Assembly (NCBI GenBank): GCA_965216785.1
Contig: OZ244197.1
Span: 1,280,001-1,344,000, forward strand
Source of the DNA: Thermodesulfobacteriota bacterium
Lineage (GTDB): Bacteria; Desulfobacterota_D; UBA1144; Nemesobacterales; UBA2774
DNA: 64,000 bases
Direction of reading: 5' to 3'
Shown piece by piece: positions 2,092 through 48,304 of this stretch. Under the pieces are notes generated by a model. That model was not told where the DNA came from and ran no database searches. It was given only the letters and a program-made list of their open reading frames with translations. The position numbers were made by a program, and so were the translations under genes. The stretch's first letter is position 1. Every line of letters begins with the position of its first letter.

Positions 2092-2211
2092 TATACTGCT
2101 CCCCATTAAGAAGTGAGTATAGTTAAGTTGGAAAAAAAGCTATACGGAGGGAGCAATGAAGCGAAGAAGATGGGATTCTAAAACAAAGACTAAGATAGTA
2201 CTTGAAGGTCT
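2092..2211 (+). pseudogene. IS3-family left end plus truncated orfA (MKRRRWDSKTKTKIVLEGL)
   Basis: TATACTGCTCCCCATTAAG...GTTAAGTT and first 19 codons match the complete IS at 43502. Confidence 0.9.
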
Positions 2212-2255
2212 TGTACTGCACCCCTTCTTTTGTCAAGCTCAGATTAAGTTGGAAT
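2212..2255 (+). repeat. Solo IS3 right-end (IRR-type) repeat
   Basis: TGTACTGCACCCCTTCTTTTGTCAAGCTCAGATTAAGTTGGAAT; 28 nt identical, inverted, to the copy at 4165-4205. Confidence 0.85.
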
Positions 2256-2442
2256 ACTGAAGATTGTGCACTCTTCTAAGCCAATCAAATGACTTCCTGT
2301 ATATAGGGTTTTCTGGCAGTAGTCCAAAATGGTAGAGGAAAATAATTTCTTGACTGGATATTCCACATTGTGATACGATGAGATTTTGTAGGAGTCATTT
2401 AATAGACTCTGCTTTTATTCCAATTGGCTAATGGAGGTACCC

Positions 2443-2682
2443 ATGCCAAAGTTTATAGATGTACATGATATGGAGCCGTTCACTGCAGAACAGCTTAAAG
2501 AACTTCAGGATGCACCTGCAGACGAATTTGGAGTCACGCATCATGATATTCTATTTAACGAGGGTGAAAACAGGATTTACTGCATCCTGGATGCTCCCAA
2601 TGCAGAAGCGATTCACAAGCATCATGAAAAGGCTGGCATCAAATGTGAATGGGTCCATGAAGTGAAGTCGACACGAACCTGA
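2443..2682 (+). CDS. DUF4242 / SCO4226-family small nickel-binding-type protein
   Basis: MPKFIDVH...YCILDAPNAEAIHKHHEKAG motif; SD GGAGGT before ATG 2443. Confidence 0.8.
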   Translation: MPKFIDVHDMEPFTAEQLKELQDAPADEFGVTHHDILFNEGENRIYCILDAPNAEAIHKHHEKAGIKCEWVHEVKSTRT

Positions 2683-2714
2683 CTGGTCCTTGGTGGTTTC
2701 ACCACCACAATCGA

Positions 2715-2807
2715 CCTTTTCGTCAAGCTGCGTAAAAGTGGAGCAGTATAATCTGCCCACTATAATAGGTCCATAAGTTAAGTTAGATTTTTATGGAGAG
2801 CAGGTCA
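2715..2807. repeat. Collapsed IS3-end remnants / mini-element
   Basis: CCTTTTCGTCAAGCT, AAAAGTGGAGCAGTATA and TAATCTGCCCAC...TTAAGTTAG...GGAGAGCAGGTCA resemble the IS ends. Confidence 0.6.
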
Positions 2808-2892
2808 AATACTATTGAAAATATATCCACCTGTGATACTATTATAGTTGCTAAGTTGTTAAATTTAGAAATCTGTATTATAGGGGGATATA

Positions 2893-4083
2893 ATGAAAAA
2901 GTTTATAATTAGTATACCCGTTTTACTGTTGTTGACCGTATTTTCCGTCCGTGCCAATGCCGATTTCGGCGATCTTTTTATCCAGGTAGAGTTGAATACC
3001 TCTCCTCAGGGATGTTCGATATTGAAAGTAGATCCGGCTGGAGGACTTTCTGAGTTTATTTCTAATGCCGAGATTCTAACTGTTTCTGGAGCTGCTAGTG
3101 CTGACTGTGATGACGCTGGACTTGCCGCAGGCTTGGATGGAAAAGTTTATTTCAATGAGGACATCTCCGACAATATATTCGTTGCAAATCCAAACGGACA
3201 GCTAGGACTATTCATCTCTGACGATGTGGTAGACAGTATAGTGCCTGGTAATGATGATGTTGATTGGGATAACGGGCTCGCTGTGGGCCCTCGATCCGGA
3301 GACCTTTTCGCGGCCGATGAGGACAATGAGATAATATTTAAGTTTTCTACGAATGTACCCACTCCTATTATAGACACGGCTTTTATAGATATATTAGCGA
3401 CTGAAGCGGATTTTGAAGCTCTTGTTTCAACAGCAGACCTTGAAGGTGGAATTGCTGTAGATTTCGAGGATAATGTCTATATCACTAACGACGGCGGCGG
3501 TACTTCTGACGTTATATTTAAGTTAAGCCCACTAGGTGATGTCTCTATACTATGTACTAATGCGGAGCTAGAAGCTGTTACAGGTGGGGATATTGATCTG
3601 GACGTAGGCGCGGTATTCGGCGGCAGCTTGTTCGTTAGTGACGACGGTGATTGCGACTGTGTCCTGGAGATTGATACAGAATCCTGCAACCCAAGGGTTA
3701 TAATTACTGAGGATGATATTACTGCGGCCACGGGGAATTCATCTGCAGACCTCGAAGGCGGTCTGTGTATAGGTCCGAATAGAGCTTTGTTTATTGGGGA
3801 CGACGCTTCAAGTGGTAATGGCGACATACCTAATATTCTGAAGTCGCCCATTACTGAGCGCTCGGGAGTCTCGATCTTTGTGTCTGACACTGCAATCGAT
3901 TCTTTTTATGCTATAGCGGAGCCGGGTTCAGATCCACAGCTGAGGGGCTCATGCAGTGTAGAGGGAGGTTTTGATAGACAGGCTTCAATCCCCACACTTT
4001 CGGAATGGGGTCTAATAGCAATGGCTGGATTATTAGGAATTATTGGTCTATTGGCTATTCGTAGAAAAAGGGTGACAGCTTAA
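2893..4083 (+). CDS. IPTL-CTERM sorted surface protein, acidic beta-propeller-like repeats
   Basis: Signal peptide; repeated D-D-GLA/GGIA blades; C-terminus IPTLSEWGLIAMAGLLGIIGLLAIRRKRVTA. Confidence 0.85.
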   Translation: MKKFIISIPVLLLLTVFSVRANADFGDLFIQVELNTSPQGCSILKVDPAGGLSEFISNAEILTVSGAASADCDDAGLAAGLDGKVYFNEDISDNIFVANPNGQLGLFISDDVVDSIVPGNDDVDWDNGLAVGPRSGDLFAADEDNEIIFKFSTNVPTPIIDTAFIDILATEADFEALVSTADLEGGIAVDFEDNVYITNDGGGTSDVIFKLSPLGDVSILCTNAELEAVTGGDIDLDVGAVFGGSLFVSDDGDCDCVLEIDTESCNPRVIITEDDITAATGNSSADLEGGLCIGPNRALFIGDDASSGNGDIPNILKSPITERSGVSIFVSDTAIDSFYAIAEPGSDPQLRGSCSVEGGFDRQASIPTLSEWGLIAMAGLLGIIGLLAIRRKRVTA

Positions 4084-4119
4084 ACTTAAACAAAACTAAA
4101 CAATACAAATTGTATATAG

Positions 4120-4143
4120 AAAGGGGAGCTTCGGCTCCCCTTT
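4120..4143 (+). terminator. Rho-independent terminator, conserved IPTL-associated type
   Basis: AAAGGGGAGCTTCGGCTCCCCTTT, UUCG tetraloop. Confidence 0.85.
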
Positions 4144-4164
4144 GTGTTTTGAATTGATATCCTA

Positions 4165-4205
4165 ATTCCAACTTAATCTGAGCTTGACAAAAGTGGAGCA
4201 GTCCA
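4165..4205 (-). repeat. Solo IS3 IRR-type end
   Basis: Reverse complement TGGACTGCTCCACTTTTGTCAAGCTCAGATTAAGTTGGAAT. Confidence 0.85.
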
Positions 4206-4252
4206 AACTTACCAACTAGCAGGTTAAGAGTAAGACTTCATGGCCTGAGTTC

Positions 4253-4383
4253 TGACATGCCCCCCATAATAGTCCATAAGCTAGCTTCTTGAAAGGAAAC
4301 CATACGTACAGAATATCATCAGAATCACCACTAAACGTAGCATTCTAGCTTAAACCGATCTTGACGAAAGGAGGAGCAGTACA
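4253..4383. mobile_element. MITE-like internally deleted IS3 derivative (~130 bp)
   Basis: TGACATGCCCCCCATAATAGTCCATAAG at left; CTTGACGAAAGGAGGAGCAGTACA at right. Confidence 0.6.
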
Positions 4384-4559
4384 ATAGTTCCTTCAAATTA
4401 ACTATTAATATAGAAAAATTATGGCTCTATCAAACTAGACATAAGGCTCAATAATTATCCTCTGCATTGTAGAATTATTCTTAGAAAATACTTAGAAATG
4501 AAACAGGGGCTAACGGGTAGCCCCTATAATGTTAGTGAGAAATGTTTGAATAATGCAGC

Positions 4560-4667
4560 TTACATGTTTTCAATCTCACAATACGATAGATTAATTTCTT
4601 CGGCTTTATTTGTTTTCATCCATTCTTCTACCTCACTCAGCTTGAATCGGATTAATCTGCCAATTCT
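4560..4667 (-). pseudogene. Excisionase-like HTH (HTH_17) C-terminal fragment
   Basis: Translates RIGRLIRFKLSEVEEWMKTNK...; in-frame stop upstream, no start. Confidence 0.65.
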
Positions 4668-4713
4668 TTAGAGAAAATTTGAGGTTTGTCCGGATTTGCA
4701 CAACTTGACAGAT

Positions 4714-5454
4714 TTATAACTCGCCTTCTCTCTTTTTGCTTCTATCGGTGTCTCTAAACGATACCAGATATGCGGTTCCACTATACCATTCTATCTGCAC
4801 TACTTGCATCTCCATTACTACGTTAAGGCCGCATTTGTGACTGATGTTGACTTTTGTCCTTTTGCCCGTATTCAAAGGAAAATCAAAATAACTTCCGTGC
4901 ATTTCTTCTTCATTACGGCCAAAGAGAAGCTCGGCGGCGGCGTTGATATATTGGACGTATCCATTCTTATTTACTATTACTAAGCCGTTGGGGTTACCGT
5001 GCAGTGCATTAAGGAAATAGTCTACGCCCTCCGGGTCTGATACTTTAGAGTGTCTATTACTTTCCATCATGAATCTGAGGTAAGAATGTAAAATGCTGCG
5101 TGCCAGATTCACAGTCTTTATCTCGTTTTTTATAAGGTAACCTTGCGCACCCATCTGAATTGATTTTATTGCCATTACTTCATCTTCATTTGCCGTCACG
5201 ATGATAATTGGTGTATTTGGTGCGTGCTTTTGCAATTTGATAAATGTATCAATTTCTTGACTATCCGGGAGATTGAGATCTAAAAGAACCAAGTCGATAT
5301 TTTCATGTGTCAGTTGTTTAAGTCCTTTTGAAAGACAATCAGCCCAATCCACTTCGAATGTTACCAGTTCTGACTTATGAAGCTTTCTTTTAACTATTTG
5401 TGAGTAATCATAATTGTCCTCAATCAATAGGACTTTTATATATTCGTTTTGCAT
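4714..5454 (-). CDS. Response regulator receiver + PAS domain protein
   Basis: VLLIEDN...LVLLDLNLPDS...GYLIK receiver, then PAS (NAAAELLFG). Confidence 0.85.
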   Translation of the reverse strand: MQNEYIKVLLIEDNYDYSQIVKRKLHKSELVTFEVDWADCLSKGLKQLTHENIDLVLLDLNLPDSQEIDTFIKLQKHAPNTPIIIVTANEDEVMAIKSIQMGAQGYLIKNEIKTVNLARSILHSYLRFMMESNRHSKVSDPEGVDYFLNALHGNPNGLVIVNKNGYVQYINAAAELLFGRNEEEMHGSYFDFPLNTGKRTKVNISHKCGLNVVMEMQVVQIEWYSGTAYLVSFRDTDRSKKREGEL

Positions 5455-5494
5455 ATGGCTTGCTCCTCCATTAATGTTCGTTATGTGCTTTCTG

Positions 5495-5538
5495 TGTACT
5501 GCTCCCCAGTATGATGACCAAATTAAGTCGGAATTATG
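5495..5538 (+). repeat. Degenerate solo IS3 end
   Basis: TGTACTGCTCCCCAG...TTAAGTCGGAAT. Confidence 0.65.
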
Positions 5539-5660
5539 AAGTTTACATTACTCATTCTAGAGCCTTATGTCCTAGGTTGTAAACACTCTTTCTGAAGTGA
5601 ACAGACAGAAATGGCGACGGTAAAAGATATAGCTCGGAATCGCCTGACTCTATATAGATT

Positions 5661-8600
5661 TTAATGCTCTGGCGACATAACCACATCGTGTAAAACTTTA
5701 CTCACATTATTAATATTATAAGGTTTTGGCATGAAAGCTTTAAATCCATATTTATCGTAATTGGATATGCCTCCGTTCTCAGAGTATCCACTTGATACAA
5801 TAGCCTTAAGATTCGGGTTTATGTCGAGCAATTTCTTCAAGGTCTCTTTTCCTCCGATGTCTCCGGGAATAGTCAAGTCGAGAATCACCGCATCCAATCT
5901 ATCGCCGGATTCTACGGATTCATTGTAGATTTTTATTGCTTCGGAACTGTTTTTAGCTAATATAGGATTGTATCCGAGCTGTGTTATCATTTCACTAAGA
6001 GTTTCTCTGATCTTCAACTCATCATCCATTATTAGTACATTCCCTTCACCTCTCTTGAGATTAAATTCTTTATCCTCCAACTCAGAGGGAGACTCTTTGA
6101 TTGCGGGAAGATAGATAGTAAATGTCGATCCTTCGTTTACTTTAGAGTCTACGGTTATATGTCCGTTGTGCTGTTTTACAATGGAGAATGAAGACGCAAG
6201 CCCAAGGCCGCTCCCATGTTCTTTTGTGGTGAAAAAAGGATCGAATATCTTCTGCAAGTGCTCTTTGGGTATACCGCCTCCGCTGTCTTTTACGTTTACC
6301 TCTACATATTCCCCCTGCGGCAGATTTAGATTATTTCCTTCCTCTAATATAACGTTTTTTGCTCCCACTTGTATTGAACCACCATCGGGCATTGCATGCT
6401 GGGCATTTATAATAAGATTATTGATAACCTGGTTTATCTGTCCCTCGTCAATCTCTACCGGCAGTAGGTTGTCTTCTATAGAGAAATCGCATTCTACGTT
6501 TGAACCTCTAAGGGCGAATTTTGTTGAATCTTCTAGTATTTCATGAATAGTCATAACTTTTACATTAGGCTCACCGCCTTTAGAGAATGTAAGAAGCTGC
6601 TGAGTTAACCCAGTTGCTCTTTGAATTGCGTCTTCTGCTTCCGAAAGCCATTTGGACATATAATCATTCGGGTCCGTTTTAGGCTCACATTACCCAAAAC
6701 TATAGTTAAGAGATTATTAAAATCATGCGCGATACCGCCAGCAAGCAGGCTCAGTGATTCCAGTTTTTGAGATTTTAGGAGTTCTTCTTCCATTTTCATG
6801 CGCTCAGTGATGTCTGTTGAATAAAGAACAGCCCGAGTCTCCCCGGACGAGGTTGTAAATGGTGTACCTGTGCTTTCAAGCCACCTATATTCCCCATTTT
6901 TATGTTTGTATCTAAGGTGCTGGATACCAGCATTAGAAAAATTCTCCAGTCCGGTAATCATACTATTAAATACGGCGTTTTTGTCTTCTGGATGAATATT
7001 ATCAAATACACTTGTGCCAATAAGTTCCTCAGGGTCATAGCCCATTTGATCTTTATGATTCTTGTTTACGAATAAAAATTCGCCCTTTGTATTTATTTCA
7101 ACTATTAAATCATGTGAGTACTCAACTAAGGCGCGGTACCGTTCTTCAATCTCCCGCCTCTTTTCTTCCTCAAGTTTACGCTCGGTAATATCACGAGATG
7201 TTATAACGCCTCGATCTTCTCCACTTGCTGTTTTAAATAACTTGCCGATGCTATTGAGCCACCGCCAGGAGCCGTCTTTATGCCTATATCTAAAACTTAC
7301 TTCATTGCTGGAGGTTAAGGTATTCTTCGCGTGAATAAATTTACTAAGTACATGGTTTTTATCATCAGGATGGACGAAATCGAAAATACTTTTGCCTATA
7401 AGCTCTTCTGGGTCATAGCCCAGATATTCTTTATGATTCTTGTTTGCGAATAAAAATTTACTGTCTGCACTGACTTCTACAATCAAATCGTACGAGTGCT
7501 CAACAATTGTGCGATACCTGTTTTCGCTTTCTATTAGCGCATCTGACTGTTTTGTATTACCGATTGCGGTTTCGACCTGCTGTGCAACTATATTCAGAAG
7601 GTATATTTCATCGTCACTAAATGCGTTTTTCTCAAAAGAATGCAAATTAATGCAACCTATTACCTTACCCTTGTAATGGAAGGGCATGGACAAATAACTC
7701 CTTGTTCCGACCTCTCTCCCGGCGGGTCCAATATATTCGTCCTGGTCTACATCCGGACAATATCTCAGCTTCCCTTCCATCAATACCTTCCATGTAAAGC
7801 CCTTAGGGTAGGGAATTTTTCCTAACCGCTGAACAAACCATTCTGGCAATCCTTTTGAGGTTTTTAATACGGCATCATCCCCCTCAATCATAAAAATTGA
7901 TACGTGTTCAGCTATTTCCATATTCCTGCTAAGTGATTGAGCCGCATTTTCTAGAACGTCTTCTAGCCTGGTTGATTTGTGCACGTTACGTGTAATCAAG
8001 CTGATAATAGATTCATACTTACTCTTTTTATATAACCTATTGAAGTTTCCCTTTATTTCGTTTTCCGCAATCTCTTGATCTATGCGCGTGGCAATCATAT
8101 TAGCAACGGATTGCAAGAAATTAATGTCATCTTGAGTGAAATTTCTTAGCTTTTTAGTGTGAGCGCCTATGACGCCATAAATTTTTTCTTTGCACTTGAT
8201 GGAGGTGCTGATCCCGCTTATAACGCTATGATCGTGAAGAAGAGCAGGTCCTGAAAATCTTTCTTCTGTTTGCAGGTTTTTTACTGTAACTGGATGTTCT
8301 GAATACAAGGTATAACCGGCCTGGGAATCGTCGCCGCCCGGAACGACGGTCTTACCCACACTTCCGTCTTTCCATCCGATGCCGGCAACAAGCAGAAAAT
8401 CCTCACCGTCCGGTAGGAGCTTTAGAATCTTGCAGTATTCAATTCCTAAGCCCCTAGCAACTAAGTTTACTGTTTTATCCATAAATTCCGAAAGATCATT
8501 GATAGATAAGGAAGATTGTCCGAGATTTGCAATTATCTCATTCTGGTAAGCCCGGATTCTTAGCTCATCTAAAATCTGTTTCTTTTCTTTGATTTCATTC

Positions 8601-8836
8601 TTAAGTTTGATTCTATGACGAACTGAGAATATGAATATGATGAAAAAAAATAATGCCGCTGTACCTATAAATTCATCTAATTCCCACGGTTCGTAACTAC
8701 TAATTAACATGTGGATTATTTCAAATAAGTCGAAATACGAGGAAATGATATAAACGGACAAGAATAAAACTAATAAAGCTGCTGGTTCCTTGTTATTGTT
8801 TGCAAATTGGAAAATTCTGTCTTTAAAATTAGTCAT
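5661..8836 (-). pseudogene. Membrane GAF-GAF-PAS-PAS hybrid histidine kinase split by a frameshift just after the H-box
   Basis: ORF 6605-8836 ends after AHDFNNLL...GNVSL; ORF 5661-6659 continues the HisKA/HATPase/receiver in another frame. Confidence 0.85.
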
Positions 8837-9018
8837 AATATGCTGTTTTGCTTAACTCACCAGACGGTATTGGTTACGCCATCCTTTTCCCTCTGTACAT
8901 CTGGCTTGTTCAACCTTTATTCTTTAGCCTCATAACTTTAATATTTTTGAAAAAGCAGAGTAAAAAATTTATGCTAACACCTACAAAAAATTAAATCGCA
9001 CATTACATAGAATGTATC

Positions 9019-9035
9019 TGCAATCTTTATGCCAG
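9019..9035 (-). promoter_or_regulatory. Sigma54 promoter for the hybrid kinase
   Basis: CTGGCATAAAGATTGCA (TGGCA-N6-TTGC); palindromic GACAAAGTTTGTC enhancer-like site ~9119-9131. Confidence 0.7.
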
Positions 9036-9186
9036 TTGATCTAGGATTTGTAAGAGACTAGAATTATTACACATTGATGATAAAACCTTATTGCTATCTA
9101 TTAAAGATGTTTAAGGGCGACAAAGTTTGTCACAATATAATTCACTTTTTTGTCAAGAGTGGTTAAAGTTGGAGTTTTTAAGACTT

Positions 9187-9227
9187 TGTACTGCACCCCT
9201 TTTGTCAAGCCTGATTTAAGTTTGATT
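9187..9227 (+). repeat. Solo IS3 IRR-type end
   Basis: TGTACTGCACCCCTTTTGTCAAGCCTGATTTAAGTTTGATT. Confidence 0.85.
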
Positions 9228-9415
9228 GAAGAATATTTGAACGAATTAAAAGGTCTTGCCTAATCATAGTCTAAATAACTTAATTTCTGTAACTCACTTT
9301 CGATACCAATAACTTTATCTTATAGAGAATGTAAATAATCTATATAATATCCTTGGCTATACCGGATTAGCCTATATAATTTAATCCATAGGCTATAAAA
9401 TATATTGAGCAAAAA

Positions 9416-10057
9416 ATGCAATCAACCGCATACAACATAGATAGAGAAAAGATTTTAGACCTTGAACAAAGAGCAAAGCTATTAAAAACATGTAAGGACA
9501 AAGCTGAACTGGATTTATTACATGGTCGGGAAACATGGATAAAACGTTACATGTTAGTAGATTTGGCTCTATTTACTGGATTACGTGTTGCCGAGATAGC
9601 CAATTTAAAAATTGGGGATTTCGATATAAAAGCTAAAGATCCCTATCTAATTGTTAGAAAAGGGAAAAGGGGTAAAAAAAGAGATGTTTATTTGGATAAA
9701 GAACTCGTTAGGCATATAAAGGCTTTTATTAGTTGGAAGAAGAAAACAATGAGAGAAGAAGTTGAAAATGATAGTCCTTTTTTTACTGGTAGAGATGGAA
9801 AACACTGTGCAGTTATAACTCTTATGAAATCATTTAAAAGGGCAATCCAAGACTCAAACTTACCTTTACATTTCTCTATACACAGTGCTCGTCATACATA
9901 TGCCACTTTCTTACTACATGCAACAAATAATCTTAGATATGTTCAGAAACAGCTTGGCCATAGTAAAATAAGTATGACTGCACTTTATGCGGATGTTTTA
10001 CCATCTGAAAATGGTAACCTAGCTAATAAGATTAGAGAAAATAATCTAACAGATTAG
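9416..10057 (+). CDS. Short tyrosine recombinase (catalytic domain only)
   Basis: TGLRVAE, KGK, HSARH, LGH, LY: full R-K-H-R-H-Y set; 213 aa. Confidence 0.9.
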   Translation: MQSTAYNIDREKILDLEQRAKLLKTCKDKAELDLLHGRETWIKRYMLVDLALFTGLRVAEIANLKIGDFDIKAKDPYLIVRKGKRGKKRDVYLDKELVRHIKAFISWKKKTMREEVENDSPFFTGRDGKHCAVITLMKSFKRAIQDSNLPLHFSIHSARHTYATFLLHATNNLRYVQKQLGHSKISMTALYADVLPSENGNLANKIRENNLTD

Positions 10058-10100
10058 CACACATACGGTTGTATTAAGCGTACTTAATTTATATTGATTA

Positions 10101-11615
10101 TCATTTTTCTGTAATCATATTTCTCCTAATCCATCCCTCAGCTTCAAAGGCATGTACGTAATCCATGTAACTTACTAGACACCATCCATCTTCTTCTCTG
10201 ATTAAAGTGACTACCATATTAGGCTGCAATATTCCCAGTGGTTTAGCATCATAAGAATTGGCTTCCATAACCTCAGATTTCTCTATTACTACATAGTCGT
10301 CAAATTGGCTCTTATTCTCCTCTTCTTCGCACGTATTTTCCATGTGTTCTTTCAATTCATTGAACTTTTCTTGTTCATAAATTCTATCTCTTTCTTCCAT
10401 CTCTTTTAGTTCTTCAATGAGTAGTTCCCTAGTAACCACATGTTCTTGACTCATTTTTTCTATTATTTTATTAGTGGATTCCTGAGACACATAGCAGCTA
10501 TGTGATAAGCTAATAAATAAAAATACTGCCGATACAATCACGTTAAGTATCAGAGGGTTTTTAGTACTTTTATCCCAAACATTCTTTATAAATTCAAAGA
10601 AGCTATCTCTTATCTCATTACGTTCTGACTCTTCTTCTGCTGTTAGGATTCGGGAGCAATATTCTGTGTACTTATTGCCAAATGTATTTTGGAATTGTTC
10701 GAATAAATCCTGACTGTCAACTAATTTGTTAAGATAGTCTCTAGCATAATTTATTGGAATGTTATTAGCAGTAACCATATTTATTGCATCCATCATATTA
10801 CGTTTGGCTTCTAATGCTTCTTCAAATTGAAGTGCGGCCGTTGATGGTATATCAAACGCATTAAAGGTCTTGGAGAGTAAATCATTTGTTTCTTTTAATG
10901 TCCTAAGTGTTTCAGTATCCAAAGTTATTTGATTAGGTACTAAATATCCCCGACTAAGGCCTGCAACTAATCCGATATCAACAGCAGCTTGTTGTGCTAG
11001 TTTGATTTGGTCCTCAAACAAGTCACGTTGTTGAAATATTGCATCGCTTAACCCGTGATCTGCGACCAATCCCATATTTGATGCAGTCTTTTGTGCTAGT
11101 TTGATTTGGTCTTCGAACCACTTGGGTTGTTGCAATAGTGTATTTTCAATATCCATCATCTCTATTTGCTTACTAACGGATTGCAACGTTTCTAATTGGG
11201 GAAATGTATACCTCTTCATTCTTTCACTTAGGTCTTTAAATGGTCCCATCAATTTCTTATCGTAGTCTTTAAAAACTTTTCTGAGCTTATCGAAAAAATT
11301 TCCATATTTATGTTTATTTTTTATTTTGTTGTAACGAGTCTTAAGTGCATGACTGTTTAACAAAATTATTCCAATATTTTTCAATTGATACTCTGATAGC
11401 TCAGATAATTTATCTCTTGGTAACTTAGGTTTGATTAGTAAGGAATGTGCAAGGTCACGAAATGCCTCTCTCGCATTTTTTCTACTAGATGCAAACTTCT
11501 GTATGATATTGTGTTGCTTTAAAGTAGGATAACGAAACTCTAATTCACCAATGTTTTTAGTTTTAATTTTGAATGACCCAGGAATTTTTACTTCTAAGTC
11601 TTTGATATCTACCAT
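10101..11615 (-). CDS. Hypothetical single-TM protein with C-terminal SH3b-like domain
   Basis: TM (LILNVIVSAVFLFISL); C-terminal LGILQPNMVVTLIREEDGWCLVSY...EGWI; internal FEDQIKLAQ..A...GLVA duplication. Confidence 0.7.
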   Translation of the reverse strand: MVDIKDLEVKIPGSFKIKTKNIGELEFRYPTLKQHNIIQKFASSRKNAREAFRDLAHSLLIKPKLPRDKLSELSEYQLKNIGIILLNSHALKTRYNKIKNKHKYGNFFDKLRKVFKDYDKKLMGPFKDLSERMKRYTFPQLETLQSVSKQIEMMDIENTLLQQPKWFEDQIKLAQKTASNMGLVADHGLSDAIFQQRDLFEDQIKLAQQAAVDIGLVAGLSRGYLVPNQITLDTETLRTLKETNDLLSKTFNAFDIPSTAALQFEEALEAKRNMMDAINMVTANNIPINYARDYLNKLVDSQDLFEQFQNTFGNKYTEYCSRILTAEEESERNEIRDSFFEFIKNVWDKSTKNPLILNVIVSAVFLFISLSHSCYVSQESTNKIIEKMSQEHVVTRELLIEELKEMEERDRIYEQEKFNELKEHMENTCEEEENKSQFDDYVVIEKSEVMEANSYDAKPLGILQPNMVVTLIREEDGWCLVSYMDYVHAFEAEGWIRRNMITEK

Positions 11616-11657
11616 ACGCCTAATATAACCAAATTTTTAGGAAAAGTTTATTTAATA

Positions 11658-11775
11658 TGTACTGCTCACAATTACTATTAAGTTTTAAGAATCATACTTC
11701 CAACTTAATCTTTGCTTGACAATAGGGGAGCGGTGTACTGCTCCCCTTTTGTTTAGTCGGATGTAAGATGGAATC
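11658..11775. repeat. IS3 mini-element (11658-11737) fused head-to-head with another IRR-type end (from 11734)
   Basis: TGTACTGCTCAC...TAAGAATCATA (matches the orfB 3' end)...CTTGACAATAGGGGAGCGG|TGTACTGCTCCCCTTTTGT. Confidence 0.75.
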
Positions 11776-11855
11776 TTGAATATCTATACTAAGAAAAAGA
11801 AGCCGGCAAAAATAGTACTAAGCTAGCTTATTTCATTTATTATATTAATAATAAG

Positions 11856-11899
11856 TGGCTCCTACGGGATTCAAACACGAATAACAGCCTTGAGGGGAC
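11856..11899 (-). pseudogene. Degenerate tRNA-Glu(CTC) 3'-half (att-site scar)
   Basis: Reverse complement CCCCTCAAGGCTG...TTTGAATCCCGTAGGAGCCA resembles the tRNA-Glu anticodon arm, T arm and acceptor 3' strand. Confidence 0.55.
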
Positions 11900-11962
11900 T
11901 ATATCAACAGCCTTTATCTGATTACCGATAGCATGATAGATTAATAATATTATATAGATAAT

Positions 11963-12059
11963 CTACATTTTCTATCAAATAGCGTCATATTCTGATATAT
12001 TGCCATCAGAAAATGGCAGTCTTGCCAATAAGATAAGAGAAAATAATCTAACAAATTAG
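11963..12059 (+). pseudogene. Remnant 3' end of a paralog of the 9416 recombinase
   Basis: YSDILPSENGSLANKIRENNLTN* vs YADVLPSENGNLANKIRENNLTD*. Confidence 0.8.
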
Positions 12060-12104
12060 GACAATATAGCTGATTGGATGGGAAAAAATAATAATTATTT
12101 TGAA

Positions 12105-12707: not shown

Positions 12708-12839
12708 TTCCGCCTCCCATTATAATTGATAAAAATCAAACTATAAATATTAAAGAATAAAACTGAAATAATATAGAGGGGGACGGCAGGTTAAAAGTTA
12801 TAAGAAATAATTTGATTTATTTCTTCTCGTTATGATATA

Positions 12840-14117: not shown

Positions 14118-14118
14118 T

Positions 14119-39960: not shown

Positions 39961-40091
39961 CTTTTTTTTCTTCCCTTAGGGGGGTGAGACGAGCCCTCCA
40001 TTCAACCTAGCGATCACAATAATATTGTTTTATTTATTCTATTGATGTAGTATTCCTTTTCGTTTTCAGATAACACTGCAAAGGGCCGTCT

Positions 40092-40676: not shown

Positions 40677-40779
40677 TACAACGGCAATAACCTTTAGGCG
40701 ATATTCTAGTGCCGCTATTGCCGCCAGCTATGTCCTCTTGTATTTGGGGTTTGGCTGCTAAGTTATAGATGTTATCAGT

Positions 40780-41799: not shown

Positions 41800-42019
41800 T
41801 ACCGTAAAACCTCCGCGTCGTTAAAAATTTTTGATTTTTTTAGACCCATAGATAAAGGTGCTAGGATACATGAAGACCTAATGTTGTCAACACGCAAAAG
41901 CCTCAGTGAAAAGGGTATGAATCGCTGATTTTACTAATCCCTTGGAGAACGGGGATATTTCTTGGCCTAGGCTCTTGATTCTTGGCTTATAAGATAGAAT
42001 AATATAGTCCTTACCCCAA

Positions 42020-42083
42020 GGGCGGGTGGTGAAATTGGCAGACACGACGGCCTCAAAAGCCGTTGGACTCACGTCCGTGGGGG
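42020..42083 (+). pseudogene. Truncated tRNA-Leu(CAA): first 64 nt only
   Basis: Identical to 50257-50320 but stops before the T-loop TTCGA. Confidence 0.9.
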
Positions 42084-42313
42084 CAATAAACTACAAATTT
42101 CATTCTTGTCTAATTATGAGCCCACTCAGTTTAAGGTCAGACATTGAAATGCGTTTAAATCTTAAATTCTTATACGATAATTACGGCATATCGACGTATC
42201 CGTGATATTTCATATGCTGCCGAAGCCTATTAAAAACCATCTTTCCCCATAACAAAACAAATATTCTCATTAATTCGAGATAGTTAAGAAGATTTGTTAA
42301 CTGTTTTAACAAG

Positions 42314-42330
42314 TTGGCATCCTATTTGTA
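42314..42330 (+). promoter_or_regulatory. Sigma54 promoter of the cupin operon
   Basis: TTGGCATCCTATTTGTA. Confidence 0.6.
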
Positions 42331-42369
42331 CTACTGTCATATTAAAAATATCACTAGGAGGTGATAAAT

Positions 42370-42867
42370 ATGTCAGTAAATAATTCTGAGCAGTCAATGA
42401 ATAATTTTGAAGAAGGCCAAGCTTTAGAGCAGCAGCCTATTGTTGTACTTCCGAACGCAGGTGAAAGTTTGGTTATAGGAGGAGGAGAATTTATCCATAA
42501 GGTAAAGAGCGGAGATACGAATAATGTGTTTTCTGTTATTGAGATTATAACTCCTCCCGGGCAAGGCGTATCGGCTCACGTACATGAAAAGGAAGACGAG
42601 CTCGTCTATCTATTGCAAGGCGAAATTGAGGTAACACTCGGTGATCAGACAATGAAGGCGGTTCCTGGTGTTATGGCGCTCTTACCTCGTGGAATACCTC
42701 ATAGTTTTGTAAATGTGGGGGACACCCATAGTATCATTATAGATACGATACTGCCCGGAGCATTCGACAACTACTTTGTAGAAATGGCAGCTCTATATGA
42801 ATCGGGAGAGCCGACGCAGGAACAAGTCGATGCGCTTTCAGTAAAGTACAGCATCAAATATGTATAA
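42370..42867 (+). CDS. Cupin domain protein
   Basis: HVHEKEDE...PRGIPHSF; SD GGAGGTG before ATG 42370. Confidence 0.88.
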   Translation: MSVNNSEQSMNNFEEGQALEQQPIVVLPNAGESLVIGGGEFIHKVKSGDTNNVFSVIEIITPPGQGVSAHVHEKEDELVYLLQGEIEVTLGDQTMKAVPGVMALLPRGIPHSFVNVGDTHSIIIDTILPGAFDNYFVEMAALYESGEPTQEQVDALSVKYSIKYV

Positions 42868-42920
42868 ATGGGTATATAGCCGTTGTAGAATATCAAAATC
42901 TTATTTGGAGGTAGTCTAAT

Positions 42921-43274
42921 ATGAAACGTTTGAATCTTGTATCAATGTCTTTGGTTTTAGGAATTATATTTTCAGTTGTTATTTGTACTTTCAGTTATGC
43001 AGAAGATGAAGGTACTAAGAGCATACAAGGTAATGTAATATGTCTCATACCTGATTATGCCCATGGAACGGTTAAGCCGGTTATAGCAACGCATCCTTGC
43101 GACGGGCTGCCAACACATCAACATGTTCTGGTAACTGAAGATACTGTTTATTCTCTTCAAGGACTGCAGGACGGTTTAAGGAAGATTGAGCAAAATCCTA
43201 ATAGAACTGATGTGGTGATTGCCGGAAAAGTTAAGGGAAGTGAACAAACAGGTTGGGTTCTTTTTGTAAATTGA
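42921..43274 (+). CDS. Secreted hypothetical protein with Cys/His residues
   Basis: Signal peptide; VICL...HPCDGLPTHQH. Confidence 0.7.
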   Translation: MKRLNLVSMSLVLGIIFSVVICTFSYAEDEGTKSIQGNVICLIPDYAHGTVKPVIATHPCDGLPTHQHVLVTEDTVYSLQGLQDGLRKIEQNPNRTDVVIAGKVKGSEQTGWVLFVN

Positions 43275-43355
43275 TATAAATTGCTGAGGTGAGATAGCCC
43301 GTCTTGTGTTCCCTAAGTCTATGATTAAAGCAGATGCATAGAAAGCTTATAAGAC

Positions 43356-43391
43356 AGAGGACTCAGTACCTTACAAAGTATTGAGTCCTCT
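43356..43391 (+). terminator. Long stem-loop, probable terminator
   Basis: AGAGGACTCAGTAC-loop-GTATTGAGTCCTCT. Confidence 0.6.
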
Positions 43392-43575
43392 TCATTTCTA
43401 GTTTACACCCTACAAACTCGTATTCTTCAAAATAACTTAAATACTCAACGGTTCTTGCAGTTCTGATACTAAGTACTAAGATAGTAAAACAGCATCTTTA
43501 TTATACTGCTCCCCATTAAGAACGAAGTATAGTTAAGTTAGTAAAATATCGGTAATACACAGTGGGAGAGCAGCT

Positions 43576-43851
43576 ATGAAACGAAGGAGATGGGACTCTA
43601 AAACCAAGACCAAGATAGTACTCGAAGGATTATCTGGTAGACCCGTATCAGAGATATGCAACGAGTACGAAATACATCAAAATCAATACTACAGCTGGCG
43701 GGATAAATTCTTATTTGAAGCACATAAAGCGTTTGAATCTAAAAAAGATGGTGGAGAAGTAAGTCGTCTTCGTAAGAAGAATCAGGAGCTAACCCAAATA
43801 ATAGGTTCACTCACCGTTGAATTAAAAAAAATAGAGGAAGACATCATATGA
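43576..43851 (+). CDS. IS3 transposase OrfA
   Basis: HTH + leucine zipper; ELKK at the slippery site. Confidence 0.9.
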   Translation: MKRRRWDSKTKTKIVLEGLSGRPVSEICNEYEIHQNQYYSWRDKFLFEAHKAFESKKDGGEVSRLRKKNQELTQIIGSLTVELKKIEEDII

Positions 43852-44618
43852 GAAAGAAGTCTGACTCTGTATCCCTTCGAAACGAACACTTACTTGAAAG
43901 AATAAAAGATATAAAAGCAGAACATCCCTTCTGGGGTTATAGAAGAGTATGGGCATATCTAAGATATATAGACGGATTAATAGTAAATAAGAAGCGTGTA
44001 TACAGGCTTATGAGAGAGCATAACCTTACTGTCCAACCGAACACTAGACTAATAGCAAAGAGAGTATCAGAAAGACCAAAGCCCAGAGCAGATAGACCTA
44101 TACAGTGGTGGGGCATAGATATGACAAAGGTCATGACTGAGAGTGGCTGGGTATATGTAGTAATAGTACTGGACTGGTATACGAAGAAGTTAATAGGTTA
44201 CTACAGTGGAACAAGAGCTACAAGCAGAGATTGGTTAGAAGCTTTAGAAAAAGGACTTAACAGGGAGTTTACCGGGGGAGTAATGGGACATGGATTAAAG
44301 CTTATGAGTGATAACGGAAGTCAGCCTACTTCACTCAATTTTATGAAAGCCTGTTCTAATCTCGAAGTGGAGCAAGTATTTACCAGCTACAACAACCCAA
44401 AAGGAAATGCAGATACAGAGAGGATGATAAGAACAATGAAAGAGGAGCTCTTTTGGCGTAGGGAGTGGGAGGGAGAAGCAGAGTCAAATAAGGAACTGGA
44501 TAAATGGGTTGATTATTACAACAGACATTACCTTCATTCAGCACACGCATACCGAACACCGATTCAGGCAGAAGAAGTGTATTATAAGAATCATAGCTCA
44601 CATAAAAACGCTGCCTGA
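43848..44618 (+). CDS. IS3 transposase OrfB (DDE)
   Basis: WGYRR, WGIDMT, SDNGSQ, ERMIRTMKEE, YNRHYLHS. Confidence 0.92.
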   Translation: MRKKSDSVSLRNEHLLERIKDIKAEHPFWGYRRVWAYLRYIDGLIVNKKRVYRLMREHNLTVQPNTRLIAKRVSERPKPRADRPIQWWGIDMTKVMTESGWVYVVIVLDWYTKKLIGYYSGTRATSRDWLEALEKGLNREFTGGVMGHGLKLMSDNGSQPTSLNFMKACSNLEVEQVFTSYNNPKGNADTERMIRTMKEELFWRREWEGEAESNKELDKWVDYYNRHYLHSAHAYRTPIQAEEVYYKNHSSHKNAA

Positions 44619-44908
44619 AAATAAGGGGAGCAGGTCACCAACATTACAGAAATTGAGATAGGCTGTGCCTTCTCCCATACTATTTTTCCGAAATGCCTCT
44701 AACAATAGCTTCTAGAAAAAAGCAGTGACGACCCTTGAATATGTTGTATTGACCTAGTTTTGACAAAGTTCAGATATAGAGTACTTTTTATAAATAAGAA
44801 AACTAACCTTTGAGAAGTATAGAACTCTCCAGACGATTGAACACTCCTTTCCTGATAACGTAAGAAGTTGCGACAACCGAAAAGGGAATTTTTCTTAAAA
44901 ATATCCCT

Positions 44909-46105
44909 GTGATAAATACTCGAAAAAAGATAAACGTGCTCCAAGTAGCTACCCTAAACCGGCCTATCAAGCAGGATTTGGGTTACGGTCCTATCGAATC
45001 GGTTATTTACAATATTGATAAAGGCCTACATAAGTCAGGTCATCGTTCGATTGTCGCCTGTTCCGGTGATTCCCGTGTTATCGGAGAACATTACACGACT
45101 ATTGACAAAAGTTTCAGTGAGTACTGGAGTAAAGACACAAATGTACAGCGTGAGAATATGCGCAGACATCTTGACCTATCACTACAAAGGGCAAAAAAAG
45201 GGGACATCGATATCATCCACGTACATGATGCCAATATGGCTGAATTTATTTATAAGGGAGTTTTTAAAAGCCCGGTTCCCATTGTTATGACGCTCCATGT
45301 GCCTGCTGAAGACAAAGGAGCATTCAAGCGGTGGAATGAATCGCTCACTTCCAATTCCGACGCATATTTTGTCCCGATCAGTAAATATCAGAGAAAACAG
45401 CATGCGGGGTTAATCAATGCGCAGAAGGTTATTAGTCACGGTATTGACGTGGAAGATTATCCATTTAAAAGCAATCCGGGAGAACAGGAATATTTGTTCT
45501 CGATCGGAAGAATCACCCAAGATAAAGGGCAGGATAAGGCCATCGAGGTAGCTAAAAGAACGGGTTCTCGGCTTATCCTCGCAGGCAATGTCCAAAACAA
45601 AGAAAAAGACCGGGCATTTTTCAAGGGACTGGAAAAATCATTCGACCTTGTGACCGATGAGGGCAAACCTTTCGTAGGTAGCGAGTATTACGAAAAAGTC
45701 ATGAAACCTATTTTGGATTCGGACAAGCAGATAATCTATATTGGTGAAGTTGACAGCGCCCAGAAAAGACTGTGGTACCGGCACGCTCAGGCGACACTCT
45801 TTCCTATTCAATGGGGCGAACCCTTCGGACTTGTCTTGATTGAATCCATGGCCTGCGGCACACCGGTGCTGGCCTTGAATAAAGGCTCGGTCCCGGAAAT
45901 TGTCATTCATGGCAAAACAGGCTTCGTCGTAGATTCAGTCCATGAAATGGCTGAGGCTGTGAAAGAGATACACCTTATAGATCCCAGTGACTGCCGCAGT
46001 CACGTTAAAGATAATTTCTCAGTCGCCAGTATGGCCGGGAAATATTCCGAGTTGTATCAGCATATTATGGGGGTAAGCGCTTCATGCCAAAAGACATACC
46101 AGTAA
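44909..46105 (+). CDS. GT4 glycosyltransferase
   Basis: YGPIE, GRITQDKG, WGEPFGLVLIESMACGTPV. Confidence 0.9.
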   Translation: MINTRKKINVLQVATLNRPIKQDLGYGPIESVIYNIDKGLHKSGHRSIVACSGDSRVIGEHYTTIDKSFSEYWSKDTNVQRENMRRHLDLSLQRAKKGDIDIIHVHDANMAEFIYKGVFKSPVPIVMTLHVPAEDKGAFKRWNESLTSNSDAYFVPISKYQRKQHAGLINAQKVISHGIDVEDYPFKSNPGEQEYLFSIGRITQDKGQDKAIEVAKRTGSRLILAGNVQNKEKDRAFFKGLEKSFDLVTDEGKPFVGSEYYEKVMKPILDSDKQIIYIGEVDSAQKRLWYRHAQATLFPIQWGEPFGLVLIESMACGTPVLALNKGSVPEIVIHGKTGFVVDSVHEMAEAVKEIHLIDPSDCRSHVKDNFSVASMAGKYSELYQHIMGVSASCQKTYQ

Positions 46106-48048
46106 GTAACGGGTCCTTTCTTTTGAATTTTGATTCGGACTATCAGATCCGAGACGTTTATTTCCCCTATATCGGGCAGGAAAACCATTCAAGCGGACAT
46201 CCATTCGGCTTTGGGATATGGGCGGACGGACGGTATTCGAAGATTGGGCCGGAATGGGTAAAAGATTTAAGATATCGTCACAATAACCTAGTAACTGATG
46301 TATTTCTAAAAAATGAAGCCTTGGGTTTGGAGCTCCGATGCTCGGATGTAGTAGATTTGGATTTGAACATCTATATCAAAAAAATCGAGGTTATGAACCT
46401 TAAAGACGAATCTCGTCAAGTCCGGCTCTTTTTCAGTCATTACTTTTCTCTTTATGGAAATGACATCGGGGGTACGGCTTATTTTGATCCCCGCAGTTGT
46501 TCGATTGTCCATTACAAAATCAACCGGTACTTTCTGATCAGCTCCTGGGCGCATGACCAATGGGGTGTGCAGCATTTTGACTGTGGTAGAAGAGATGCTT
46601 CGGGAAGTATGGAGACCGTTAAAAAGACAGGAAACGGAGAACTTAGCGGGGTGGCCGCCGCATGGGGCTCGCCTCATTCCACCATCGGCATTTGGCTGGA
46701 ATTGCCCGCCGGGGGCTCAACAAATGCATATTATTGGATGGTGGCGGGCACAACCTATGCTGAAGTCGCTAAGCTCAATTTGGAAGTCCACGATAAAACG
46801 CCTGAAAAACTCCTTAAGCGCTCGTCGAAATACTGGCAAACATGGATACATAATGATTCGTTGAAGCTTCAAGGCTTGCCTAAATCCATGACCGACATTT
46901 ATAACCGAAGCCTGCTTATATTAAGAACGCAAATTGACAACCATGGAGCCATTATTGCCGCCAATGATTCTGAGATTATTCGATTTGGAAAAGATACTTA
47001 TTCCTATATGTGGGGACGGGATGGCGCTTTTGTCGCAGCCGCTTTATCAAAGGCGGGTTACTCGCATCCGTGTATGAAATATTTTGATTTCTGCGCGCGC
47101 ATTTTATCTGACGAAGGCTATTTATTCCAGCATTATAATCCGGACGGATCCCTTGCAAGTAATTGGCATTCCTGGTTAGTCGAGGGCAAAGAGGTCCTTC
47201 CCATCCAGGAAGATTCAACCGCCTTAACTATTTGGGCGCTATGGAAATACTATGAGAGCATGAAAGATGTAGAATTTATTAGGCCTCTTTACAGTAAGCT
47301 CATTAAAAAAGCCGCCGACTTTTTAGTCAGTTACCGTGACCCCCAAACTCATTTGCCTTTACCTTCCTATGATCTTTGGGAAGAACGTTACGCGTTGCAC
47401 GCTTATACGGTTGCATCAGTGATCGCCGGTCTTAGAGCGGCCGCCAATTTCGCGAAGCTCTTTAAGGACACCTCGTTGGCTGAGAAGTATGACTCCGTGG
47501 CCGATGAAATGACGGAGGGAATTATTCAACACCTATACCATAAAGACCTAAAGCGATTTGCCCGTTCGGGCTCCAGAATAGAGGGAGGGTATAAACTTGA
47601 TGAAGTCATTGATATTAGTCTGTTAAGCTTGGCAACACTTGGAGTTTTGAATTCCGATGACCCGCGAATGATTGAAACAGCCCAAGCTATTCACGAGCAG
47701 CTATGGCTTAAAACTCCTATTCAAGGTTGCGCCAGATACCAGGGTGATTTCTATCAGCGTGCGGATGATAGCCCAAAGGATATTCCCGGTAATCCATGGT
47801 TTATTTCGACACTTTGGCTGGCAGAATATTTTATCGATAAGGCTGGGAATCAAGAGCAGCTTCAAGAGACCCTTCCATATCTTGAATGGTGTGTTGAAAA
47901 TTCACTTCCTTCAGGCGTTCTTGCCGAGCAAGTACATCCTGTTACCGGTTCACCTCTTTGTGTTTCGCCTCTCACTTGGAGTCATTCCGCTTTTGTTTGG
48001 ACTGTTCTGCGATACACTGAAAAGGACAAGACGCTCAGAAAACAATAA
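46084..48048 (+). CDS. GH15 glucoamylase/trehalase-like glycoside hydrolase
   Basis: YSYMWGRDG, QEDST, YDLWEE, LAEQV, PLTWSH. Confidence 0.9.
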   Translation: MPKDIPVSNGSFLLNFDSDYQIRDVYFPYIGQENHSSGHPFGFGIWADGRYSKIGPEWVKDLRYRHNNLVTDVFLKNEALGLELRCSDVVDLDLNIYIKKIEVMNLKDESRQVRLFFSHYFSLYGNDIGGTAYFDPRSCSIVHYKINRYFLISSWAHDQWGVQHFDCGRRDASGSMETVKKTGNGELSGVAAAWGSPHSTIGIWLELPAGGSTNAYYWMVAGTTYAEVAKLNLEVHDKTPEKLLKRSSKYWQTWIHNDSLKLQGLPKSMTDIYNRSLLILRTQIDNHGAIIAANDSEIIRFGKDTYSYMWGRDGAFVAAALSKAGYSHPCMKYFDFCARILSDEGYLFQHYNPDGSLASNWHSWLVEGKEVLPIQEDSTALTIWALWKYYESMKDVEFIRPLYSKLIKKAADFLVSYRDPQTHLPLPSYDLWEERYALHAYTVASVIAGLRAAANFAKLFKDTSLAEKYDSVADEMTEGIIQHLYHKDLKRFARSGSRIEGGYKLDEVIDISLLSLATLGVLNSDDPRMIETAQAIHEQLWLKTPIQGCARYQGDFYQRADDSPKDIPGNPWFISTLWLAEYFIDKAGNQEQLQETLPYLEWCVENSLPSGVLAEQVHPVTGSPLCVSPLTWSHSAFVWTVLRYTEKDKTLRKQ

Positions 48049-48263
48049 TTATCAGAGAAGGAAATATGTTTTTGCTTGATTTGTGTTATGTAGATGATTT
48101 TTGCTTCTTTTCATCCAGGGAAAGAAGACGGGCAGCCCCCCTGGCAAGATGTTTCTTTGAAACTCATTTACTTTAGTTTGGTCTCACCCAAAAGCTGTAC
48201 CGTGCAAATTAGAGATTTCTGACGTTTTTGAATACCTTTTCATATAATCCTCCAGTGTGATTA

Positions 48264-48304
48264 AATCCAACTTAAACCGAGCTTGACAAAAGGGGTGCAG
48301 TACA
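48264..48304 (-). repeat. Solo IS3 IRR-type end
   Basis: Reverse complement TGTACTGCACCCCTTTTGTCAAGCTCGGTTTAAGTTGGATT. Confidence 0.88.

Follow-up and report, generated by a model that had tools for sequence, protein, structure and literature searches.

The roughly 40-base motif that recurs in the window (the whole 64,000-nucleotide stretch of DNA analyzed) is probably the distal right end of an IS3-family element, at which the transposase would cut so as to move itself and its passenger genes as one. We call this distal right end R' and the old right end, which overlaps the orfB stop codon, R0. Cutting at R' is likely because 4-bp duplications enclose the left end, the transposase, R0, the passengers, and R'. 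In the window the whole cargo-carrying element occupies 43502–48304 on the plus strand (4803 bp) and is flanked by TTAT at 43498–43501 and 48305–48308. An earlier note on this DNA had described 43502–44637 as a complete IS3 element; that interval has no duplication, and the pairing of ends in the note omitted that the autonomous element itself bears cargo and closes at 48304. We assign the element to an IS3-family transporter IS (tIS) lineage.

The left end of the window unit (IRL, 43502–43541, plus strand) has a tip that starts with TA, the tip hexamer forming a −10-like box. It is followed on the same strand by orfA (43576–43851, 91 amino acids, HTH_Tnp_1) and by an open orfB (43848–44618, 256 amino acids) with a DDE transposase domain whose residues D91, D155, and E191 are invariant across the 256-amino acid OrfB homologues. 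The decayed R0 (44598–44637, minus strand) lacks an inner box and has no duplication. Two plus-strand passenger genes lie beyond it, coding for a GT4 glycosyltransferase (44909–46105, Pfam) and a GH15 glycoside hydrolase (46084–48048, Pfam and NCBIfam). The working right end, R' (48262–48304, minus strand, 50.9 bits), has a TG tip, the inner box, and an outward −35 box at 48283–48288, with the duplication immediately outside its tip.

The transposase is a DD35E enzyme of the IS3 type, and OrfB scores 173 bits against NF033516 (cut-off 160). As judged from the reading frames, orfB overlaps orfA in the −1 frame at a slippery run (A8 at 43824–43831); this run is present in 21/21 duplication-bounded units, and a frameshift is predicted. 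The ends are imperfect inverted repeats of about 40 bp and the duplications are 4 bp, within the 3–4 bp of the family. R' starts with TG in 117/129 cases and the left end with TA in 138/145, as in IS2, an exception to the TG rule. The likeness of the window OrfB to the IS2 TnpB profile is weak (58.9 bits, cut-off 597). This genome has one intact orfB copy, and orfB is broken in 9 of the 21 duplication-bounded units.

Facing left-end/R' pairs had a 4-bp match in 10 of 45 cases, compared with 54 of 9692 unlinked pairs, and left-end/R0 pairs in 0 of 7. In a larger, partly overlapping set from the close lineage, the duplication lay at R' in 21 of the 33 elements with a distal R' and at R0 in 2 of 57 (Fisher p 3.7e-10); a shuffle control for the former gave a mean of 0.33 and a maximum of 4 in 20000. 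Twelve of the 33 lacked a perfect duplication at R', three of these matching at 3/4 positions. Where at least 2 kb of downstream sequence was available, R' was present in 24 of 28 elements. Two elements (L153 and L244) have two R' each, and the duplication sits at the outer one. R0 is sometimes live, duplications being found there in L206, L207, and the mini-element L066. The distant relatives are plain IS, with the duplication at the end adjoining orfB in 6 of 11 testable cases and a 3/4 match in two more; that no distal end was seen in this group carries little weight because the scan profile was lineage-specific.

R' is a separate right end and not the end of 43502–44637. The motif had been equated with the end at 44637, and the outer ∼23 nucleotides do match, but the inner half is different. 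Comparison of 120 solo ends with 14 orfB-linked ends gave two distinct types. In the 21 units, R' matched the tip consensus at 15–16 of 16 positions and R0 at 4–13, and the inner box was found in 19/21 R' and 0/21 R0. These differences bear on an improbable alternative, that the units are decayed composite transposons and every R' represents the terminal ∼45 bp of another IS copy that lay downstream; such units would arise afresh each time, without any special lineage. There is a precedent in ISApl1-mcr-1 units whose downstream IS is reduced to its last 42 bp and which show putative duplications (PMC5821093), and the conservation of R' does fade after about 45–50 bp. Nevertheless, R' and R0 are distinct types, which argues against R' being what is left of another copy of one and the same element. 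Moreover, none of the 60 commonest C-termini listed for 120 OrfB homologues resembles R', per-position counts favoring another ending; a second IS3 element, IS-B, has a right end different from R'; and the distal R' is the rule in the lineage rather than a rare derivative. A composite may have been the first source of the lineage. In a midpoint-rooted tree of 64 rows, from which close-lineage rows with neither duplication nor R' and rows under 50% identity were omitted, R' bearers were set apart by a branch with 96/100 support; three long-branch rows also lay inside and the root was a midpoint, so a single origin of R' bearers is left unsupported.

A profile scan recovered all eight motif copies that the earlier note had listed (2212+, 4205−, 4383−, 5495+, 9187+, 11734+, 11737−, and 48304−), and the best score in the reversed-genome control was 10.3 bits, control scans giving no motif copies. 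Genome-wide there were 25 solo R', none within an ORF of at least 120 amino acids, as expected from the claim that the copies are intergenic; the surrounding DNA was GC-poor (median 41% versus 46.5%). The 20.5–42-kb core was correctly said to be free of ends, none being detected between 11737 and 43502. The R pattern was present in 18/41 genomes, all 18 also having an OrfB match, two of these distant only.

The solo ends at the start of the window are mostly orphans of left end–cargo–R' units, since they have no partner with a duplication; nested insertions would account for others. A left end with about 19 orfA codons (2092–2211, plus strand) is cut by a solo R' (2212–2252, plus strand, 41.5 bits) whose flank matches the tip at 2750 (minus strand) in 3/4 positions. 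Between them lies a gene for an SCO4226-like small protein (2431–2682, plus strand). A scrambled remnant in which an R0-type inner piece is joined to an end tip (2704–2750, minus strand) overlaps the left end of IS-B (2749–2790, plus strand). An IPTL-CTERM surface protein gene (2893–4083, plus strand), with the family terminator, is directed into a solo R' (4168–4205, minus strand) whose flank match with the left end at 2092 is only 3 bp. A 131-bp hybrid of the IS-B left end and R' follows (4253–4383, plus strand; R' tip at 4383, minus strand) and has no duplication. Farther along are a degenerate R' (5495–5535, plus strand, 18 bits), a partial R' at 9135 in tandem with a solo R' at 9187 (9135–9226, plus strand, 13.9 and 46 bits), a tyrosine recombinase gene (9416–10057, plus strand), and a head-to-head R' pair, 11737− and 11734+, with a 4-bp overlap (11698–11773). 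Four left-end remnants had been reported here: that at 2092 is a left end of the lineage, those at 2749 and 4253 belong to IS-B, and that at 11658 is a tip only, undetected by all three profiles. Across this genome, 2/25 solo R' had a perfectly duplicated left partner, and a search for degenerate left partners gave 2 perfect cases among 38 candidates, both already known.

The earlier note had proposed that any two inward-facing solo ends, R'/R' pairs included, form a cassette moved in trans. The ends do adjoin whole genes and lie between ORFs, and transposase-less left-end/R' units with duplications exist. However, duplications were found in 0/14 inward R'/R' pairs and in 0/34 IS-B-left/R' pairs, and an R'/R' junction would be expected to lack a −10 box at the tip, which makes this model very unlikely. 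The 14 include the two pairs singled out before: 2212/4205, which share 29 identical nucleotides (28 had been claimed), and 9187/11737, between which the supposed SH3 gene gives a sub-threshold match (E 0.011). What survives of the idea that the ends are handles is that they function around whole genes and are not random decay, the working pair being the left end and R' with cargo between. We give hardly any credence to the motif being a site at which the tyrosine recombinase encoded nearby recombines an integron- or pdif-like cassette array. The recombinase gene does sit between two ends, and 33/148 R' have a neighbor in the same orientation 0.2–7.5 kb away. Against this, the motif is homologous to an IS end, starts with TG, and co-occurs with the transposase; the recombinase is not an integron integrase (76 bits against TIGR02249, far under the cut-off of 265); and, where an integron would have an integrase and attC-bounded cassettes, the boundaries bear transposase-type 4-bp duplications.

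IS-B has a right end of its own, which rules out R' as the right end of IS-B, and no IS-B transposase was found in this genome. There are 14 IS-B-left/R' hybrids, 4253–4383 among them; the lack of duplications in IS-B-left/R' pairs led us to reject the hybrids as free MITEs. Separately, 3 of the 14 show a 4–5-bp match at a 1–2-bp offset, a post hoc observation not used as evidence.

The 21 duplication-bounded units carry 20 distinct cargoes, with one to five whole genes between R0 and R'. Because the passengers vary between copies and the duplications enclose the transposase together with the passengers, the element likely serves to capture genes, exchange them, and carry them to new sites. 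The GT4–GH15 pair occurs at other loci in 6/40 relatives, in four of these six with no detectable end. For IPTL-CTERM genes we claim enrichment among passengers only, since in G015 there are 38 of these genes but the element has no match, and G036 has 14 ends and 0 genes. The element was accordingly rejected as the driver of IPTL-CTERM expansion. The idea that the element favors the hairpin of the IPTL terminator as a target was also rejected, one case having been noted by eye (G000 867932) and the pattern occurring in 0/136 left flanks.

Five transposase-less left-end/R' units have duplications (G000 1967341–1968632, L032, L067, L077, and L088), in agreement with the earlier claim that non-autonomous units exist. 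The first three have the architecture of a mobile insertion cassette (MIC); no MIC-type unit was found inside the window. A deletion derivative occurs with the identical breakpoint at 11 loci, six of them in one genome. On the indirect evidence of these units and this derivative, movement in trans appears likely, albeit unproven. In no case did a transposase-less cargo unit turn up at two loci; the transposase may therefore also have been lost after insertion.

In IS2 the right end is the sole donor, the left end is the recipient, and the junction promoter requires a 1-bp spacer (PMC3299598). The R' lineage is IS2-like in its TA/TG tips, in the 16 bp from the −35 box to the tip, and in four head-to-head junctions with exactly a 1-bp spacer among 400 ends. 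IS2 makes a 5-bp duplication and carries no cargo, whereas the R' lineage carries cargo and makes a 4-bp duplication. By analogy with IS2 and IS3, we infer that frameshifted OrfAB would use R' as sole donor and join it to the left end 1 bp apart; the resulting circle would then insert. Its junction would build a promoter, with the −35 box in R', a 17-bp spacing, and the −10 box at the left tip. R0 may have been taken into the orfB stop region, losing the inner box common to the left end and R', and the next downstream R' would be chosen because R0 lacks this box. The weakest step is cargo turnover, which could proceed by end-skipping: an element landing upstream of an orphan gene–R' would use the outer R', the inner cargo being deleted later. 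Orphans would arise by loss of the left end and transposase. A tentative extension, which we consider possible but doubtful, is a system analogous to the integron but driven by a transposase. R' would be a portable cassette delimiter, a head without its own right end would have to carry a gene, gene–R' arrays would grow and be trimmed by end choice, transposase-less heads would move cassettes in trans, and IS-B-left hybrids would deliver R' behind new genes. If so, the host's orphan gene–R' pool, rich in surface proteins, would be a re-mobilizable gene library.

Reviews name a few tIS families beyond IS1595 and IS66. The TnCentral preprint restricts tIS to these two (10.1101/2021.05.26.445724); tIS are IS-like elements with passengers inside the ends and the duplication around the whole (10.1101/2021.05.26.445724; PMC9330008). 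All 21 units have this architecture, with the transposase also inside the ends. Their IS3-type transposase lies outside the two families that the preprint names, a matter of catalogue and not of architecture. The window lineage also differs in that R0 persists between transposase and cargo and in its near-unique cargo (20 in 21). No IS3-family transporter lineage was found in the literature searched, a scope that excluded ISfinder and most subscription journals. The single-ended Tn6330 derivatives (IS30 family; ISApl1-mcr-1 with a 42-bp IRR remnant) have, like R' units, the order IS, cargo, short distal right end. They are ten in number, rare, and confined to one cargo, with a distal end identical to the IS end (PMC5821093). 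In the R' lineage, by contrast, this form is usual, the cargoes are many, the distal end has its own consensus, and the inner end is decayed. IS231-MIC231 of the Bacillus cereus group (IS4 family) is also a size-variable family in which passenger genes lie within the ends and which includes cassettes without a transposase (PMC2266710), and MICs are mobilised in trans (PMC4133298). IS231-MIC231 moves by IS4 cut-and-paste, has extra DNA between the left end and the transposase, and makes a 10–12-bp duplication, whereas the R' lineage is of the IS3 family, with cargo downstream and a 4-bp duplication. ISEcp1/IS1380 transposition units move genes beyond the transposase via a farther right end. TMos do the same (PMC9330008); in both, the far sites are chance look-alikes, whereas the R' lineage has a full, conserved far end of ∼45 bp.

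IS3 elements are regarded as bare, and annotation would cut an R' element at the wrong end and lose its cargo. A lineage with a different intact gene in nearly every copy shows the passage from plain IS to unit transposon, for which relatives of plain type, copies of mixed type, and derivatives without a transposase are all available. Its numerous natural copies with clear duplications of 4 bp also bear on the open mcr-1 question of whether units of IS, cargo, and lone right end move, and they bring the choice of ends during copy-out transposition within reach of tests. The element is, in addition, a candidate means by which accessory genes flow in this uncultured lineage of environmental bacteria.

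Positions 1–11982 and 42600–49200 are each covered by a single contig of sequencing run X1, possibly the source of this DNA. Runs X5–X7 yielded no long coverage of 1–13500, which carries no weight either way. The search for circle junctions suggested in the earlier note gave no circle joint in the contigs of the runs examined, the four 1-bp head-to-head junctions being an indirect sign of a copy-out circle, and neither those contigs nor the relatives had the target of the window unit in a cleanly empty state. In G003 the flanking genes of the window unit are present with two other ORFs between them, and in run X5 the window unit lies at the identical place.

No target duplication surrounds 43502-44637, which the earlier note had taken as a complete IS3 element. 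TTAT lies on either side of 43502-48304, a unit comprising the left end, orfA and orfB, the right end adjoining orfB (R0, 44637), a GT4-GH15 cargo pair and a motif-type right end distal to the transposase (R', 48304). Ends facing each other at up to 12 kb were tested for a perfect 4-bp match, which was found for 10 of 45 left end/R' pairs (a further 5 matched at three of four positions), 0/7 left end/R0 pairs and 0/34 pairs of R' with the left end of a second IS3 element, IS-B; the background among unlinked end pairs was 54/9692. The proposal that inward-facing R'/R' pairs are cassettes moved by IS3 transposase in trans found no support in these pairs as mobile units, with a duplication in 0/14.

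A larger set combined 46 genome loci with the 80 top-ranking of 327 metagenome matches. The close lineage (OrfB identity at least 73%, plus one frameshifted copy) comprised 92 loci, 61 of them non-redundant with a left flank, and five overlapped with the facing-pair set. Of the close-lineage loci, 57 were testable at R0, and 2 of these had a duplication there; at distal R' it was 21 of the 33 having R' (shuffle control: mean 0.33, maximum 4 in 20000), the other 12 lacking a perfect duplication. R' was present in 24/28 close-lineage elements with at least 2 kb downstream. R0 was used in three cases. In the 21 units with a duplication at R', R' tips matched the 16-base consensus at 15-16 positions, compared with 4-13 for R0 tips; the inner box occurred in 19/21 R' and 0/21 R0. 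We therefore consider it likely that this IS3 element is closed by the distal R', with the cargo enclosed. The relatives farther off, from Zixibacteria, Chloroflexota and Planctomycetota, are plain IS; their orfB-adjoining end showed a duplication in 6 of 11 testable cases, a 3/4 match in 2 and none in 3. One Chloroflexia genome has four plain copies of identical sequence, two of which (L138 and L139) show a 3-bp match and a one-sided extra base, perhaps a 1-bp junction spacer carried along.

The part of the earlier proposal that required transposase-less units fared better. Five left end/R' units lacking a transposase had perfect duplications, three of them longer than 1 kb. In 22/180 cases a left end ran straight into a right end or the tail of orfB; 11 of these share a breakpoint (judged by eye), are 60-84% alike and have different flanks, six of them lying in one genome. 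From sequence, this derivative at 11 loci is best read as having spread in trans, though among the transposase-less units no individual cassette with cargo recurred at a second locus.

The identification of the motif as the IS3 right end held for only the outer ~23 bases, which are common to R0; the remainder differs. R0 overlaps the orfB stop codon. Right ends from the source genome and the loci fetched fell into 14 attached to the tail of orfB and 120 without this linkage (R'); the inner half separates the two kinds, and the box that R' carries there is also present in the left end. No R'-like reading was seen among the 60 commonest C-termini of 120 OrfB homologues. The supposed remnants of the window IS3 at 2749 and 4253 are both IS-B left ends. 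IS-B occurs whole, with a separate right end, in relatives; no whole copy was found in the source genome. Hybrids of an IS-B left end and R' numbered 14, including window 4253-4383, and the DNA at the R' tip differs in 13. Five IS-B copies with both ends (L044, L045, L046, L048 and L027) have no target duplication.

All eight motif copies reported in the window (2212, 4205, 4383, 5495, 9187, 11734, 11737 and 48304) were present. The closed 3.12-Mb source genome was scanned with profiles of three end types, giving 47 hits of at least 12 bits (30 right-type, 9 left-type and 8 second-left-type); maxima in the reversed genome were 10.3-11.5 bits. The core is indeed free of ends, with no hit from 11737 to 43502. 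With a 14-bit cut-off, 25 solo right ends were retained; none falls within an ORF of at least 120 aa, in line with the intergenic position that had been claimed, and they sit in low-GC DNA. Where an inner gene lies within 600 bp, the nearest one is aimed at the right end in 17 of 23 cases (p 0.035). The right-end pattern was present in 18 of 41 genomes, all 18 with an OrfB match (distant only in two), and is thus limited to transposase-bearing relatives. The closest transposase relatives are titled Dadabacteria or Thermodesulfobacteriota.

The window transposase is intact and of IS3 type, with an A8 run as predicted slip site; in 9 of the 21 units the transposase is broken. Left ends start with TA and R' with TG. 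Because R' carries a -35 box 16 bases inside its tip, and a -10-like hexamer forms the tip of the left end, a 1-bp spacer yields 17-bp spacing, and four head-to-head junctions had exactly this spacer. IS2 shows the same junction behaviour, and only its right end acts as donor (PMC3299598). Copy-out transposition would start from R'. Both units with two R' had the duplication at the outer one, and the intervening DNA was thus captured; 33/148 R' have a same-direction inner neighbour within 8 kb. A new gene would first be joined to R' and the inner cargo later lost, a cargo-swapping route that we rate as less probable than closure by R' itself. No circle joint was seen in contigs of the sequencing runs examined; this, the 12/33 loci lacking a perfect duplication, the three uses of R0 and the nine broken transposases all count against the proposed mechanism.

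Each of the 21 units encloses between one and five whole ORFs, the cargo spanning 0.7-5 kb, and a single pair shares cargo at the DNA level. The 28 cargo proteins scanned include methyltransferases, a lipase, an alkyl sulfatase, a lectin, a ligand-gated channel, beta-propellers and five IPTL-CTERM surface proteins. An IPTL-CTERM gene precedes 6/25 R' in the source genome, against 56 of ~2800 ORFs genome-wide (p 6.5e-6), and the number of these genes per genome is independent of the element. Four of the 56 lie in the window (2893-4083, 50520-51008, 52238-53203 and 54621-55340). A terminator hairpin with a ~70% alike 3' tail is common to 31/56, accounting for 31 of 45 such hairpins in the genome; hairpin and tail could serve as homology in exchanges of domains or cargo. 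A pentameric ligand-gated ion channel gene at 19208-20263 has a relative that is a passenger in another element locus (L244, 9673-10674). The GT4-GH15 pair occurs in 6/40 relatives beside neighbours differing from the window's: one (G009) has an orfB piece upstream and R' downstream, another (G018) has R' downstream, and no end was detectable in the other four. A further repeat inside the cargo right before R' (48183-48252), with a second copy at 1152650-1152697 of the source genome and matches in several relatives, resembles in sequence the terminus of a different mobile element.

The window unit, a cupin and a sigma-54 activator gene share an 8.2-kb island. At its two edges (42017-42083 and 50254-50320) the 5' part of tRNA-Leu(CAA) is repeated exactly over 67 bp in direct orientation, and this part of the tRNA is the integration site; no integrase was seen within the island. 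In one relative (G003), checked for an empty site, the unit is absent between the same flanking genes, where two other ORFs lie. In a sequencing run of a near-identical strain (X5), it occupies the identical place with nearly identical cargo and a diverged, partly deleted transposase region. That region (window 43683-44556) is a mosaic with dozens of differences and a 384-bp replacement, which, beside near-identical cargo, suggests recombination between element copies.

The distal-R' element has the architecture of a transporter IS and works alike; it belongs to IS3, whereas the transporter families listed in the available parts of the sources (TnCentral preprint; PMC9330008) do not include IS3. 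The closest structure is the single-ended form of Tn6330, which retains 42 bp of the downstream end and whose mobility its authors, in the part available, left to experiment (PMC5821093); the closest family-wide parallel in the portions available is IS231-MIC231 (PMC2266710; PMC4133298). No IS3 lineage of transporter kind was found in the literature searched, of which coverage was partial. This lineage is a variant of a known transporter-type architecture in a family not listed for it. Both the motif observation and the cassette interpretation of the earlier note thus stand in part.

Besides one cut left end and a head-to-head pair, the cluster at 2092-11737 contains eight right ends and two IS-B left ends. 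For none of them was a partner seen that shares a perfect duplication, contrary to the reading of the cluster as cassettes bounded by R' pairs; these ends belong to the distal-R' system as orphans and as nested insertions. Within it, ORFs for a PAS/GAF sensor (5661-6659) and a kinase-receiver (6605-8836) overlap in different frames at ~6605-6720 and are probably a single hybrid kinase split by a frameshift. A 70-100 bp repeat at 11946-12070 has six other copies (window 9316-9350 and 9986-10061; source genome 1152500, 864650, 870950 and 1163400), several adjoining recombinase genes, and these are possibly island attachment or regulatory sites. An SbcD/SbcC-like phosphoesterase and AAA ATPase pair at 12840-16860 (GC 30-33%) precedes an ORF resembling a rolling-circle Rep (PF23343) at 17156-17728.
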